Source: Dehalococcoidales bacterium (GTDB taxonomy: Bacteria > Chloroflexota > Dehalococcoidia > Dehalococcoidales > UBA1222). Taken from it: a stretch of 64,000 bases of DNA. Location: contig JAEESL010000002.1 of the NCBI GenBank assembly GCA_016286345.1, forward strand, positions 7,051-71,050. The letters are read 5' to 3'. How positions within the stretch are numbered: position 1 is the first letter of the stretch; each line of letters begins with the position of its first letter. The notes below the pieces were generated by a model that did no database searches, was not told where the DNA came from, and saw only the letters and a program-made list of their open reading frames with translations. This document shows positions 9,216 to 13,033 of this stretch, in pieces. Both the position numbers and the translations under genes were made by a program.

Positions 9216-9220
9216 ACTTA

Positions 9221-9245
9221 AGGCCACCCTGCGGTGGCCTTTTTC
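9221..9245 (+). terminator. intrinsic terminator hairpin between the convergent P-type ATPase and radical-SAM genes
   Basis: AGGCCACC-ctgc-GGTGGCCT followed by TTTT on the plus strand. It lies 6 nt after the ATPase stop and 11 nt after the minus-strand rSAM stop, so it may act bidirectionally. Confidence 0.65.
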
Positions 9246-9255
9246 ATAAAAGCTG

Positions 9256-10272
9256 TTACTTACTTATCAGAGCACAGTGCGGCGATTCATAGATCTTTCC
9301 ATGAACGAAATAATTGTATGAACGGCAGCCGCCCGCACAGTATTTTCCATGGCTGCATGTTGCGCAGTTTCCTGTGAGCATATCTGATTTGAAGTGTCTG
9401 TTATAAGCAAAAGCATCGGGATCTTCCCATATATCACGGAGCTTCTTTTCGCGTAAATTGCCTTCTATGAAACAGTCTGCATACATGGATTCACAACCGC
9501 GGACATTCCCCACACTGTCGATACCGATCGAATTGATTCCGGCGGAGCATCCGCTGAACGGGACTGTTCCGTTAATGTTTCCGCGAAGACGGGCATCGTC
9601 TTCCGTATAGTAGCCGATATTATCCGCAAAACCGAGCAGAAAAGGCGCAGTCTTTGCATATTTCCTGACAAAATCTATGACCTTCCATACATCAAATGAA
9701 TACGGAACTCCGCTGTTTGCAGCATTTCCCATCGGAGAGCATGCCTGCAGCTGCCAGGCTCCGATTCCGGTATTACGGAGTATCAGATATAACTCTTCCA
9801 GTCTATCCACGTTTTCTGCATTCAGAGTGGAAATAACCGAAGTCGGGATACCGGCATCATTCAGAGTGTGTATGGCTTCTATGGCTCGTTTGTAACTGCC
9901 TGTCTGACGGTATTTATCATGAACATCCTCAGGTCCATCCAGAGAGACTGCAATGGATTCGATATTGACCTCCCGGAGAGTTTTTATGAGCTCCGGACGG
10001 AATAAGAATCCGTTTGTAATGATACAGACACGGATATTGTGATCGGTAAAGCTTTTTACGATCGTCGCCCAGTCAGGTCTCATAAAGACCTCTCCGCCGA
10101 TCAGAGATACTCTGCGACAGCCAAGATCAGCAAGCTGTTCAACGATCGAAAGACACTCTTCCGTTGTAAGTTCATTATCCCGTGCCCTGCCGCCTCTTGA
10201 TCCGCAGTAACGGCAGGAAAAAGAGCATGCCAGGGTTATTTCAAAAACACAGGAACGAAGTCTGAATTTCAT
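9256..10272 (-). CDS. radical SAM / SPASM-domain enzyme (candidate peptide/protein maturase)
   Basis: 338 aa. It has the rSAM cluster motif C16-x3-C20-x2-C23 (ACSFSCRYC) and a GGE motif (LIGGEVF). The SPASM signature is complete: C242-x12-G-x4-C260, C303-x2-C306-x5-C312-x3-C316, C333. The start codon overlaps the stop of the upstream small ORF (ATGA at 10269..10272). Confidence 0.9.
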   Translation of the reverse strand: MKFRLRSCVFEITLACSFSCRYCGSRGGRARDNELTTEECLSIVEQLADLGCRRVSLIGGEVFMRPDWATIVKSFTDHNIRVCIITNGFLFRPELIKTLREVNIESIAVSLDGPEDVHDKYRQTGSYKRAIEAIHTLNDAGIPTSVISTLNAENVDRLEELYLILRNTGIGAWQLQACSPMGNAANSGVPYSFDVWKVIDFVRKYAKTAPFLLGFADNIGYYTEDDARLRGNINGTVPFSGCSAGINSIGIDSVGNVRGCESMYADCFIEGNLREKKLRDIWEDPDAFAYNRHFKSDMLTGNCATCSHGKYCAGGCRSYNYFVHGKIYESPHCALISK

Positions 10273-10619
10273 TTTCTGTAAAGATTAAGATCTATTCCGC
10301 ATTTATCACAGGTGTTTGCGGCGTCATCAACTTTATTTCCGCAATTTGGACAGAAATTGATTGCAGGATTTTCACTGCTAACTGAACGATTCTCAGGATA
10401 TCCGGGGTCATCCACTGGTTCTTCAAACATATCAGGACCGGCATAAACATCCTCGCAGGGGTTGTCATTGACGTTAAAAGGATTTTTTTTCTGAAAAAAA
10501 TCAGGGCCTGCATAGACACCTTCGCACGGATCGGTATCTTTTTTCTTCTTTTTGAAATAATCCGGACCGGCATAAACACACTTCATCGGCTCGTGTTTAC
10601 CGAATAAACGAAAACTCAT
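10269..10619 (-). CDS. YAGPD-repeat protein B with C-terminal zinc ribbon (candidate rSAM substrate)
   Basis: 116 aa, with RBS GGAGG 8 nt upstream. It carries three repeats: KC-VYAGPDYF, PCEG-VYAGPDFF and PCED-VYAGPDMF. These are followed by a YPEN motif and CPNCG-x10-CDKCG. Confidence 0.75.
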   Translation of the reverse strand: MSFRLFGKHEPMKCVYAGPDYFKKKKKDTDPCEGVYAGPDFFQKKNPFNVNDNPCEDVYAGPDMFEEPVDDPGYPENRSVSSENPAINFCPNCGNKVDDAANTCDKCGIDLNLYRK

Positions 10620-11007
10620 TTATGACCTCCTGGCACTGACAATTTATTGTTGTCGTGGTGAACCGCACTCTGGACAGAATTTTGACGGTACTTCAAATTT
10701 GAAGCCACAGCTGGTACAGTAATTCTTTTCGTCACTATCACTTCCGTCTGCATGATTTTCAGGATATACGGGTGTTTTATACGTGTCCGGCATAGCAGCG
10801 CCCATAAACATAAAGCCTTGAGGGTTTCTGTTGTAGAAGTCAGGACCGGCATAAGTCATCATCATCGTCTGGTCAGACGGAGGAGTTGAAGGAAACGAAG
10901 GTTTATCCTGTGGAGTCACTTCAGAATTGGATTCATTGCTGTCTTTCTCCTGAGACTGATCCTCTAATCCCTGCTTATTTGCAAAATAATCAGGACCGGC
11001 ATAAACA
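10433..11007 (-). repeat. five dispersed copies of a roughly 17-nt coding repeat (plus-strand word CAGGACCGGCATAAACA and variants) encoding YAGPD
   Basis: Copies lie at 10433..10449, 10502..10518 (diverged: cagggcctgcatagaca), 10562..10578, 10841..10857 and 10991..11007. All are in the reading frame of the two small ORFs. Confidence 0.75.
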
Positions 11008-11039
11008 CATTTCATCGGTTCATTAGGATTTTCAATCAT
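10644..11039 (-). CDS. YAGPD-repeat protein A with C-terminal zinc ribbon (candidate rSAM substrate, paralog of B)
   Basis: 131 aa, with RBS AAGGAGG upstream. It carries KC-VYAGPDYF and a Cys-less MMMT-YAGPDFY copy, then YPEN and CTSCG-x10-CPECG. The N-terminal 13-mer EPMKCVYAGPDYF is identical to protein B. Confidence 0.75.
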   Translation of the reverse strand: MIENPNEPMKCVYAGPDYFANKQGLEDQSQEKDSNESNSEVTPQDKPSFPSTPPSDQTMMMTYAGPDFYNRNPQGFMFMGAAMPDTYKTPVYPENHADGSDSDEKNYCTSCGFKFEVPSKFCPECGSPRQQ

Positions 11040-11185
11040 AACTGACCTCCTTAATTCATATCTGTCTAATATAAAGCACTGTTTATACGGATATTTTACC
11101 TTGTGACATTATCATAAATAAATACTAAATAACCAGCAGCATATACAACATCAATAATAGTCGAAAGATATCTGTGAACAGAGTG

Positions 11186-11221
11186 TTAAAAAATACACCC
11201 CCTTGGGATCAAGGGAGTGTA
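11186..11221 (-). terminator. intrinsic terminator of rho
   Basis: Minus strand reads TACACTCCCTT-gatccc-AAGGGGGTGTA (one mismatch) followed by TTTTTTAA, 37 nt after the rho stop. Confidence 0.65.
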
Positions 11222-11257: not shown

Positions 11258-13033
11258 CTAGACTGCCTTGTAACGATCTTTCATGATCGACTCAAGGAAT
11301 GCGGCATTATTGGATGTACGCTTAAGAGAATCTATGACTCTCTGTGAAGCTTCCTGTGTAGTAGCATTGGGTGAATCAGTTGCGATTGCACCGACCATTC
11401 TTCTGAGAAGTCTGGTGAGAGTGAATTCATTCTTTTCATACAGGAATTCATCCCGTCGGGTCGATGACTTGGTGATATCAACGGCAGGATAGCATCCGCG
11501 CTCTGCAAGCTTTCTGTCGAGATGGATCTCCATATTGCCTGTACCTTTGAACTCTTCATAGATCAGGTCATCCATACGTGAACCTGTATCGACCAGACAT
11601 GTTGCAATGATCGTCAGGGAACCGCCTTCCTCAATGTTTCGGGCAGCGCCGAAGAATCTTTTGCCGGGATGGAGAGCAACGGGATCGATACCGCCTGAAA
11701 GAGTTCGTCCGGAGGAAGGAAGTGCCAGGTTATATGCCCTTGTAAGTCTGGTGATACCATCCAAGAGAAGGAATACATCCTTTCCTGCTTCTACCATTCG
11801 CTTGGCTTTTTCGATGGCAAGTTCGGCAACTCTGGTCTGGTTCTCTTCGGCTTCATCGAATGTCGCTGCAATAACTTCGCCGCGGACACTTCTACGCATA
11901 TCGGTGACTTCTTCAGGTCGTTCACCGATAAGACAAACGATCACATGGATATCCTTATAATTCTCTTCCACTGCATTCGCAATGGCTTTCATGAGCATTG
12001 TTTTACCGGCCTTGGGAGGTGCAACAATAAGACCTCTCTGCCCGCAGCCGATAGGACAGAAAAGATCTATGATCCTGGTAGCTATAACATCGGAAGTGGT
12101 TTCCATGGTTATTCGTCGGTCAGGGAAAATAGGAGTGAGCTGGGTGAAAACTTTTCTCTGACGAGATTTTTCAGGAGAGATATCATTGATTCTCTCTACT
12201 CTGACCATACTGTAATATTTTTCTTTATCTTTGCCCGGTCGTGAAACACCGACCACATAGTCCCCTGTTCTGAGACCGAATCTCTTGATCTGAGACTGGG
12301 CAACATAAATGTCATCGGCACTGGGTAACAATGAATCCTGTCGGAGGAATCCGTAACCCTCGCCCAATATATCCAGAACACCTGAACAAAGTTTGTAGCC
12401 CTGACCCTGCTGTTCAATATAATGTGCCATCAGCTGCTCAACGACATCCTGCTTTGAATGTGTTGCAATGTCGGTAAGACCTGCGTCTGCTGCCATCTGG
12501 ATCAATTTGACGGAATCGGTTTCATAAAGCTGATCCATCGTCGGAACTGATATATCAGGATTTTTGGGATCATGAGAACCGGCATTCTGATATCTTCCGT
12601 TATAAAATTTTCCGTGTCGTTCTGTGTTAACGGCTTTAGCTGCATCTTCAGTATTTACATCAGTTGCAGCATCCGATGAAGATGCCGTCTCTGCAAGTTT
12701 TTCTTCAGCTGCAGACTTTTCCTTCTCGATCAGCCGTTTGGTCTTCAAAACACGTTTTGTGATTCTTCTTACAGGCGCAGCTTTTACTGATTCTGTTTCA
12801 GTTTTTTCCTGGGCCTCAGCAGGTACCGCTGCAACAGCCTTCTCAGGAACAGTTGCTGCAGTTTCAGTCTTGGGTTTTCTGCCGCGTTTTTTTACCTCTG
12901 GAACAGTTTCTGATTTATTATCAGCAGCTTTCTTTTCAGATGTCTTTTTTACAGCAGTTTTTCTTACAGGCTTTTTGATTTCTACCGCAGATTCTTCTTT
13001 GGTTTCTTCAGTTTTCTTTGTTCGAGGTGCCAT
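11258..13033 (-). CDS. rho: transcription termination factor Rho with a roughly 165-aa low-complexity N-terminal extension
   Basis: 591 aa. The core has the Rho N-terminal helix bundle ([22 protein letters not shown]), the CSD-like RNA-binding part ([14 protein letters not shown]), a Walker A (APPKAGKT) and the C-terminal ATPase. Residues 1-165 are K/E/A/T-rich. Confidence 0.95.

Follow-up and report, generated by a model that had tools for sequence, protein, structure and literature searches.

A minimal radical-SAM/SPASM enzyme encoded with V-Y-A-G-P repeat proteins: a candidate splicease-like, two-part protein-modifying module

Spliceases such as PlpX, PcpX, RhaX and RasX are radical S-adenosylmethionine (rSAM)/SPASM enzymes of family TIGR04103, the model that we take to stand behind InterPro entry IPR026482. 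PlpX, the founding splicease, belongs to that entry (PMC11002830). Spliceases excise a tyramine equivalent at X-Y-G sites, for which the cyanobacterial type requires a small Y protein; hundreds of non-cyanobacterial spliceotide systems are binary, lacking the Y protein, binary systems that also lack a recognition element (RRE) for peptides made on ribosomes and then modified post-translationally (RiPPs) are known, and whole proteins with a short tag are modified leader-independently, with multiple sites per precursor documented (PMC11414181, PMC10533398, PMC9811515). The tag of PlpA2, for example, is PLYGLPI (PMC10533398). Here we describe a locus in a 64-kb stretch of contig JAEESL010000002.1 (assembly GCA_016286345.1, Dehalococcoidales bacterium), in which three tightly packed minus-strand genes encode two repeat proteins, A and B, and a minimal rSAM/SPASM enzyme, in the order A-B-rSAM. 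Judged from sequence, it is moderately probable that these form a binary, RRE-less rSAM module modifying repeat tyrosines in A and B, with a YP motif as docking or activating element.

The window referred to below is the whole 64-kb stretch, all of which was translated in six frames for motif counts. The open reading frames (ORFs) of substrate protein A (131 residues; 10644..11039, minus strand) and substrate protein B (116 residues; 10269..10619, minus strand) each follow a strong Shine-Dalgarno sequence (AAGGAGG at 11046..11052 and GGAGG at 10626..10630, respectively). The third gene encodes the 338-residue enzyme (9256..10272, minus strand), which matches the Pfam Radical_SAM and SPASM models. 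The TGA stop codon of B overlaps the ATG start codon of the rSAM gene as ATGA, and the enzyme is predicted to be translationally coupled to B. Because terminator-like hairpins bound the gene set, one following rho upstream (11198..11216, minus strand) and a strong one of 9 pairs (6 GC) downstream, between the rSAM gene and a convergent P-type ATPase gene (9220..9241, minus strand), A-B-rSAM is taken as the transcription unit. As the first-pass annotation had stated, no peptidase or transporter belongs to this unit. None of the flanking genes in the window encodes a peptidase or is otherwise connected with the processing of peptides. One flank holds Rho, transaldolase, CTP synthase, a MATE pump and YchF, and the opposite flank an ArsR regulator and the P-type ATPase.

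A is a paralogue of B (32% identity), and their motifs are collinear. On the minus strand, a motif scan located two [V/T]YAGPD repeats in A, namely A1 (VYAGPD, 10989..11006, context EPMKCVYAGPDYF) and A2 (TYAGPD, 10839..10856, context QTMMMTYAGPDFY), and three VYAGPD repeats in B, namely B1 (10560..10577, context EPMKCVYAGPDYF), B2 (10500..10517, context DPCEGVYAGPDFF) and B3 (10431..10448, context NPCEDVYAGPDMF). Each protein has a single YPEN motif (residues 92-95 of A, 10755..10766, minus strand; residues 74-77 of B, 10389..10400, minus strand) and, with a spacing of exactly 12 residues from YPEN to the first Cys in both, a C-terminal zinc-ribbon pattern (CTSC-x10-CPEC in A, 10665..10718; CPNC-x10-CDKC in B, 10299..10352; both minus strand). 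The first-pass annotation had placed the YPEN motifs and ribbons at exactly these positions. Across the window, C..C-x10-C..C and YPEN each occur twice and [VT]YAGP occurs five times, in every case within A and B, a confinement that rules out chance for the motif set.

The earlier view that neither protein has a signal peptide or transmembrane (TM) segment holds as well, the maximum 19-residue Kyte-Doolittle mean being 0.11 for A and -0.17 for B. In the AlphaFold prediction, residues 1-88 of B are unstructured (predicted local distance difference test, pLDDT, 47-59) and residues 89-116 form a small folded beta structure (pLDDT 76-87), predicted to be a zinc-ribbon domain with two CxxC knuckles. 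The repeats fall in the region predicted to be unstructured and should therefore be accessible. Against a cut-off of 25 bits, the Pfam model Zn_Ribbon_1 (PF13240) accepts B, which scores 31.9 bits, and narrowly misses A, which scores 21.9 bits with its Cys pattern intact; ribbons of homologues at loci L005, L006 and L011 score 26.8-33.1 bits. Besides the ribbon, no Pfam or NCBIfam model matches the substrates. A 'MgtT' (PF23498) assignment of the VYAGPD repeats in A and B (18.5 and 11.7 bits, cut-off 27) was rejected as probably a composition effect, and sub-threshold 'rubredoxin-like' matches on the ribbon were dismissed. Only 5 sequence homologues of B were found in 5.8 billion proteins.

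The enzyme carries its CxxxCxxC radical-SAM cluster motif at residues 16-23 (10204..10227, minus strand), with C16, C20 and C23 invariant in 21 homologues, and a SPASM region (9274..9549, minus strand) in which seven conserved cysteines (C242, C260, C303, C306, C312, C316 and C333) occupy invariant columns. The Pfam SPASM match covers residues 242-306, and 5 residues follow the last SPASM Cys, residue 333 of 338. With the cluster motif starting at residue 16 and the chain ending at 338, there is no space for an RRE. The absence of an N-terminal RRE, claimed earlier from the position of the cluster motif, is further borne out by alignments to SuiB, SkfB and CteB, which begin beyond the N-terminal domains of these proteins (at SuiB residue 132, past the SuiB RRE), and by the lengths of all 120 homologues listed, which are 335-366 residues. 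The AlphaFold model of the enzyme has a predicted template modeling score (pTM) of 0.79, with low confidence in the SPASM part, and its top Foldseek matches, SkfB (the best match in the PDB), SuiB, PqqE and the anaerobic sulfatase-maturing enzyme anSME, are generic rSAM/SPASM neighbors only.

Among NCBIfam models, the best match of the enzyme is TIGR04103 (nif11-class maturase 3; 238.7 bits, E 8.6e-71), collinear over residues 4-333, followed by TIGR03913 (GDL-motif maturase; 227.9 bits, profile positions 21-353 of 477); the next model, WgkB, is far behind both at 158 bits. Annotated members of TIGR04103 and TIGR03913 were taken from a plasmid collection and are 33.5-35% identical to the enzyme. 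In a rough neighbor-joining tree, the window enzyme groups with the relatives P0127, P0135 and P0144, apart from the TIGR04103/TIGR03913 clade. No Pfam or NCBIfam model covers the enzyme clade or its substrates as a curated family.

The enzyme family is large. More than 1600 homologous protein clusters were counted at E<1e-20, and a profile search of 1.84 billion representatives returned 1307 relatives at E<1e-30; a phage collection contained no homologue. The best 120 homologues, from Lachnospiraceae and other Clostridia in rumen and gut metagenomes, are 64-70% identical to the enzyme, whereas the substrates keep their motifs only. A scan of one genome per species yielded 268 loci (at least 268 species-level genomes), mostly in Lachnospiraceae of herbivore and human guts; 80 of these loci were kept, and the 67 with a cleanly called enzyme gene were used for context counts. 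An ORF with VYxxP repeats lies directly upstream of the enzyme in 66 of the 67 loci, stop and start often overlapping. In 58 of them this ORF has at least two strict repeats, and all but one of the remaining loci have diverged repeats such as VYASPD, VYAPPE or LYAAPE. The two-part module of repeat protein and rSAM enzyme is widespread in rumen and gut Clostridia.

Nothing else travels with this pair. Across the 67 loci, gene-family clustering identified no other conserved neighbor gene, no recurring peptidase, exporter or RRE accompanied the module, and no small conserved extra ORF that could be a candidate RRE was found. The 33 same-strand downstream neighbors fall into almost as many families, the few recurrent neighbors being KsgA, MerR, CNNM/CBS, a rhomboid protease (4 loci), DUF6709, a sugar-type ABC ATPase and MATE. 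The statement of the first-pass annotation that the locus departs from a conventional RiPP locus with RRE, protease and exporter thus stands at the level of the family, in which conservation extends to the repeat protein and the enzyme and no further.

Motifs and ribbons were counted in 52 substrates, which are 79-395 residues long, hydrophilic, rich in Pro, Glu, Asp, Gly and Met, and hypervariable outside their motifs. The first hallmark is the presence of 2-9 copies of P-x-M-x-x-V-Y-A-G-P-[E/D]. A logo of 186 sites reads P-x-[M/I]-x-x-V(83%)-Y-A(89%)-G(84%)-P-[E/D/P]-x-[M/F], where Tyr and the +3 Pro are imposed by the pattern used to collect the sites; the residue following Tyr is Gly in 3% family-wide. 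The second hallmark is a [K/E]-Y-P-x-[N/R] motif, represented by YPEN in the window, which occurs exactly once in 46 of the 52 substrates, the apparent exceptions being truncated ORFs or near-variants. Its position is free, often at the extreme N-terminus (MKNFFKKLFGKKYPxR) and otherwise right before the ribbon, as in the window. About 20 substrates (for example at L005:6960-7988, L006:1065-1871 and L031:121-771) share a basic N-terminus, MKNFFKKLFGKKYP[E/D]R, with the YP motif at the very start; B begins with MSFRLFGKHEP, which resembles a remnant of this N-terminus. None of the tabulated substrates has a signal peptide, and neither a double-Gly leader nor regular cleavage sites around the repeats were found.

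More distant relatives of the enzyme link it to similar repeats. P0230, P0253, P0219, P0169 and P0190 (35-38% identity) carry a hydrophobic, lipobox-like segment after the SPASM domain and then 3-8 repeats (AYGFPD/VYGIPD in P0230, xYGIQPD in P0253, DYAGPVP/DYMGPGP in P0190), and they look like natural enzyme-substrate (Rosetta-stone) fusions. Their repeats have the Y-x-x-P-[D/E] skeleton in common with the window VYAGPD; they differ from those of the window in lying in cis, in being mostly true Y-G sites, and in having no YP motif or zinc ribbon beside them. P0207 and P0223 likewise have a C-terminal lipobox-like segment and x-Y-G-x-P-D/E or Y-A/M-G-P repeats. Should this hydrophobic segment anchor the protein in the membrane, the fused repeats would be extracellular, which is puzzling for a cytoplasmic iron-sulfur enzyme. 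Other relatives with long matches were rejected as substrate-enzyme fusions: P0130 and P0132 each join two rSAM enzymes in tandem, whereas P0139 is chimeric.

The loci of two other distant, minimal homologues appear to keep the substrate architecture in miniature. Beside P0135 (L087:632-859), a 75-residue protein of the form QYPDS...MVYFGPQ...CPCG...FCAECG combines a single YP motif and a single VYFGP site with a zinc ribbon, and beside P0144 (L090:2080-2403), a 107-residue protein is ribbon-like at its N-terminus, contains SYPHN and AVYAGPP, and ends in a TM helix. The latter gene sits downstream of its enzyme, and the TM helix would make its product a tail-anchored version. The contexts of two further distant relatives, P0145 and P0137, contain no obvious precursor. 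In a large group of relatives, among them P0143, P0147, P0149, P0151, P0154 and P0156, a C-terminal TPR domain is present, possibly as a different solution to peptide recognition in place of an RRE.

Based on these comparisons, a simple model would suggest that A and B are cytoplasmic, largely intrinsically disordered proteins and that the enzyme, having no RRE, reads short linear motifs in them directly, in a manner resembling anSME and the leader-independent or binary spliceases. Radical chemistry would take place at the invariant Tyr of each P-x-M-x-x-V-Y-A-G-P-[D/E] repeat, of which A offers 2 and B 3. Docking or activation would most likely fall to the single-copy [K/E]-Y-P-x-[N/R] motif, and the zinc ribbon would be a frequent but dispensable accessory that may tether the substrate, stabilize it, or serve the product's own function. 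The chemistry would most likely be splicease-type tyramine excision or a related Tyr-centered backbone or cross-link reaction, and the product would remain a protein or be trimmed by housekeeping peptidases rather than pass through a dedicated protease and exporter. The module is most likely a new branch of "splicease-like" protein-modifying systems and not the source of a classical secreted peptide antibiotic.

Several observations weigh against this model. Known splice sites are marked by a Gly that follows Tyr, yet no YG dipeptide occurs in A or B, and where TIGR04103 spliceases act on X-Y-G sites, the sites here are [V/T]-Y-A-G-P, with Ala after Tyr in 89%. The enzyme misses the TIGR04103 cut-off of 725, covering profile positions 3-342 of 412, and, at 227.9 bits, the TIGR03913 cut-off of 591.75; it also has no counterpart to the C-terminal region of roughly 70-130 residues that both reference families possess. 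The reading of TIGR03913 enzymes as spliceases is itself suggested by the Y-G sites of their partners, and no paper stating so was found. The roles proposed for the YP motif and the ribbon are read from their distribution, and the proposed reading of the whole family is drawn from sequences and predicted structures. A protease or exporter elsewhere in the genome may also exist and would be compatible with the synteny data. On the first of the two cut-offs, other sampled relatives likewise score below 725, and the equivalog cut-off of TIGR04103 therefore appears narrow. Because Ala follows Tyr in most sites and the reference C-terminal region is missing from the enzyme, tyramine excision as the specific chemistry is advanced tentatively, as a proposal clearly short of probable.

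The first alternative, put forward in the first-pass annotation, is that the folded C-terminal zinc ribbon is a follower-type docking module that the enzyme needs. Of the 52 substrates, 39 have the ribbon (37 at the C-terminus, 1 internally and 1 at the N-terminus), a folded structure is predicted for it, a C-terminal follower helix serves the nearest family, and a ribbon fused to the enzyme in TIGR03913 members and in P0270 could act in cis there as it would act in trans here. Against these points, 13 of the 52 substrates are ribbon-less, with no ribbon ORF within 2.5 kb at 12 such loci; the ribbon is N-terminal in L047 and L074 and internal in L034, L038 and L067; and at L001 one enzyme is paired with two substrates, one with a ribbon and one without. 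Absent from a quarter of the substrates and variable in position, the ribbon cannot be an obligatory docking module. The YP motif, nearly universal and mostly single-copy, would be the better docking candidate, and its location at the extreme N-terminus in many homologues indicates that it is not tied to the ribbon. What survives of the earlier proposal is the general idea of C-terminal follower-type recognition, for which the DUF1843 partners of TIGR03913, with a conserved helix after the Tyr site, provide a precedent, and a weaker role of the ribbon as an accessory to docking, since TIGR03913 enzymes bear a ribbon of the same kind as the substrates described here. As the module that the enzyme needs for docking, the ribbon is unlikely.

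A second alternative would keep the repeats as multiple cores of a conventional secreted RiPP, with the protease and transporter genes at another place in the genome. Other RiPP classes include multi-core precursors, the rhomboid protease noted above is found downstream of the enzyme at 4 loci, and some loci have MATE or ABC genes nearby. The diversity of the downstream neighbors, among which no peptidase or exporter recurs, the lack of signal peptides, double-Gly leaders or regularly placed cleavage sites, and the position of the window MATE gene, four genes from the unit and beyond rho and a terminator-like hairpin, argue to the contrary and leave this explanation improbable. The rhomboid-family intramembrane protease lies 1-2 genes downstream of the enzyme in L034, L060 and L068, within a cluster of four members; it is the sole recurring protease, yet too rare to belong to the module.

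The mycofactocin precursor ends in a C-terminal Val-Tyr, which the conserved V-Y pair of the repeats recalls. A third alternative would accordingly hold A and B to be precursors of a small peptide-derived cofactor or metabolite, comparable to pyrroloquinoline quinone (PQQ) or mycofactocin, with one molecule released per repeat after non-specific proteolysis. Matches of the enzyme to the MftC model (133.9 bits, cut-off 265) and the PqqE model (87.5 bits, cut-off 381) are significant though sub-threshold, no exporter is present, and a repeat number varying from 2 to 9 is what would be expected if dosage matters. However, splicease-type models score much higher, no tailoring genes (peptidase, oxidase or cofactor-using dehydrogenases) are conserved, the window V-Y pairs are internal and repeated with no RRE partner, and the presence of a zinc ribbon and a YP motif would go unexplained, so that little probability attaches to this explanation. 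Finally, the four ribbon cysteines could be thioether donors of a sactipeptide or ranthipeptide/SCIFF-like product, with the Tyr repeats not the target, which would fit the common formation of Cys thioethers by SPASM enzymes, a 132.5-bit match to the sactisynthase model StsB and SkfB as best PDB match, but this is very improbable given that the Cys pattern, a classical CPxCG...FCxxCG pair of knuckles, exceeds the Pfam zinc-ribbon cut-off, that a quarter of the substrates (13 of 52) lack such cysteines, that the repeats have no conserved Cys of their own (16% at position -2), and that the StsB cut-off of 625 is far from reached. All four explanations are less likely than the binary, Tyr-directed module.

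Three further observations concern individual loci. In Agathobacter rectalis DFI.5.28, a cultured human-gut Lachnospiraceae, a 39%-identical rSAM gene on a 252-kb 'plasmid' (L091:2995-4149) adjoins an MFS transporter gene, and a small unannotated upstream ORF ends in ...NLFGPVMYGTGVRM, with a possible M-Y-G site. At L031, a second, unrelated radical-SAM gene (315 residues; approximately 1885-2830) follows the enzyme. The Rho protein of the window (11258..13033, minus strand) is extended by about 200 residues ahead of the RNA-binding domain, a segment with abundant Lys, Glu, Ala and Thr; the Pfam domains of this Rho begin at residue 217.

For all its size and strong conservation, the enzyme family has no name or curated model, and no paper on it was found. 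A full-text search returned nothing relevant on a VYAGP-type motif, on an rSAM enzyme with a zinc-ribbon repeat RiPP, or on SPASM proteins in Lachnospiraceae. If the repeats are modified as proposed, splicease-like substrate rules would extend past X-Y-G, the substrates would be a natural case of a disordered intracellular protein modified by radical chemistry at multiple sites, and a very small (338-residue), RRE-free enzyme with a 10-residue tag would be available for protein engineering. More speculatively, rumen and gut Clostridia could harbor a new class of rSAM-modified proteins, intracellular, disordered, and furnished with a zinc ribbon and many V-Y-A-G-P sites, in which the enzyme performs either non-YG tyramine excision, yielding alpha-ketoamide warheads, or an undescribed Tyr chemistry, and in which a position-independent YP motif replaces the leader and RRE. 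In this superfamily, either partner can carry the recognition module, be it a helix, a TPR domain, a zinc ribbon or the substrate itself, and this mobility, together with the family size, the small enzyme, the non-YG site and the multi-site disordered substrate, makes the system worth specialist attention.

Comparison with anSME is informative in outline. anSME is a minimal rSAM and SPASM enzyme with its cluster motif from about residue 15 and no RRE, and it reads a short linear motif in a full-length protein. The enzyme described here shares this minimal, RRE-less outline and the recognition proposed for it, and Foldseek adds a structural match. anSME differs in its target, C/S-x-P-x-R, and in its reaction, formylglycine formation, and sequence similarity is at the superfamily level only.

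TIGR03913 is closer. Its enzymes, 35% identical to the one described here, are encoded in Burkholderia and Azospirillum with two or three paralogous DUF1843 or DUF1842-DUF1843 partners only, again with no RRE, protease or exporter. The partners, which include proteins of about 200 residues, have a Tyr site in a linker and then a C-terminal recognition-like element (PMC10994174), the function of these proteins being unassigned in that 2024 structural paper. The sites read PIRMLYGG, TPYGV and AAMYGV or MPMYGV, followed by the GDL helix. At L092:2034-2734 and L094:560-2125, DUF1843 or DUF1842-DUF1843 proteins with a hydrophobic-Y-G site just before the GDL helix are encoded beside a splicease-like rSAM enzyme; one Azospirillum DUF1843 paralogue has PMYMAT, with no Gly following Tyr. 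A literature search found no functional paper on TIGR03913, the GDL motif or DUF1843. There are also differences. Both TIGR03913 enzymes (L092:2872-4428 and L094:2204-3679) end in their own CxxC-x11-CxxC zinc ribbon, as P0270 also carries one on its C-terminus, whereas here the ribbon is on the substrate. Their substrates have a single x-Y-G site and no repeats, the partners carry the GDL helix (Pfam DUF1843), for which Pfam gives no match in A or B, and the hosts are Proteobacteria, not Clostridia.

The TIGR04103 spliceases share with the window enzyme the rSAM/SPASM make-up and a site in which Tyr follows a hydrophobic residue, often with Pro at +3 (ALYGLPP). An annotated Nostoc member, 33.5% identical to the enzyme, adjoins a Nif11 precursor ending in ...GG RGSIALYGLPPELF and a small Y-like ORF. 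In contrast to such precursors, which have a Nif11 or NHLP leader, the substrates here are disordered, leaderless repeat proteins with a zinc ribbon, and the C-terminal portion of the TIGR04103 model that has no counterpart in the window enzyme amounts to about 70 residues. Published genome mining for spliceotides was keyed on YG-rich precursors (PMC10849128), and a Y-A-G-P family would therefore have escaped it. The first-pass annotation had treated protein-sized substrates and the lack of an RRE and protease as a departure from typical loci; these features are real, but they are not atypical, being known for non-cyanobacterial binary spliceotide systems (PMC11414181). Binary, RRE-less systems of the splicease type are already known, and what is new is the uncharacterized Y-A-G-P enzyme clade together with its substrates.

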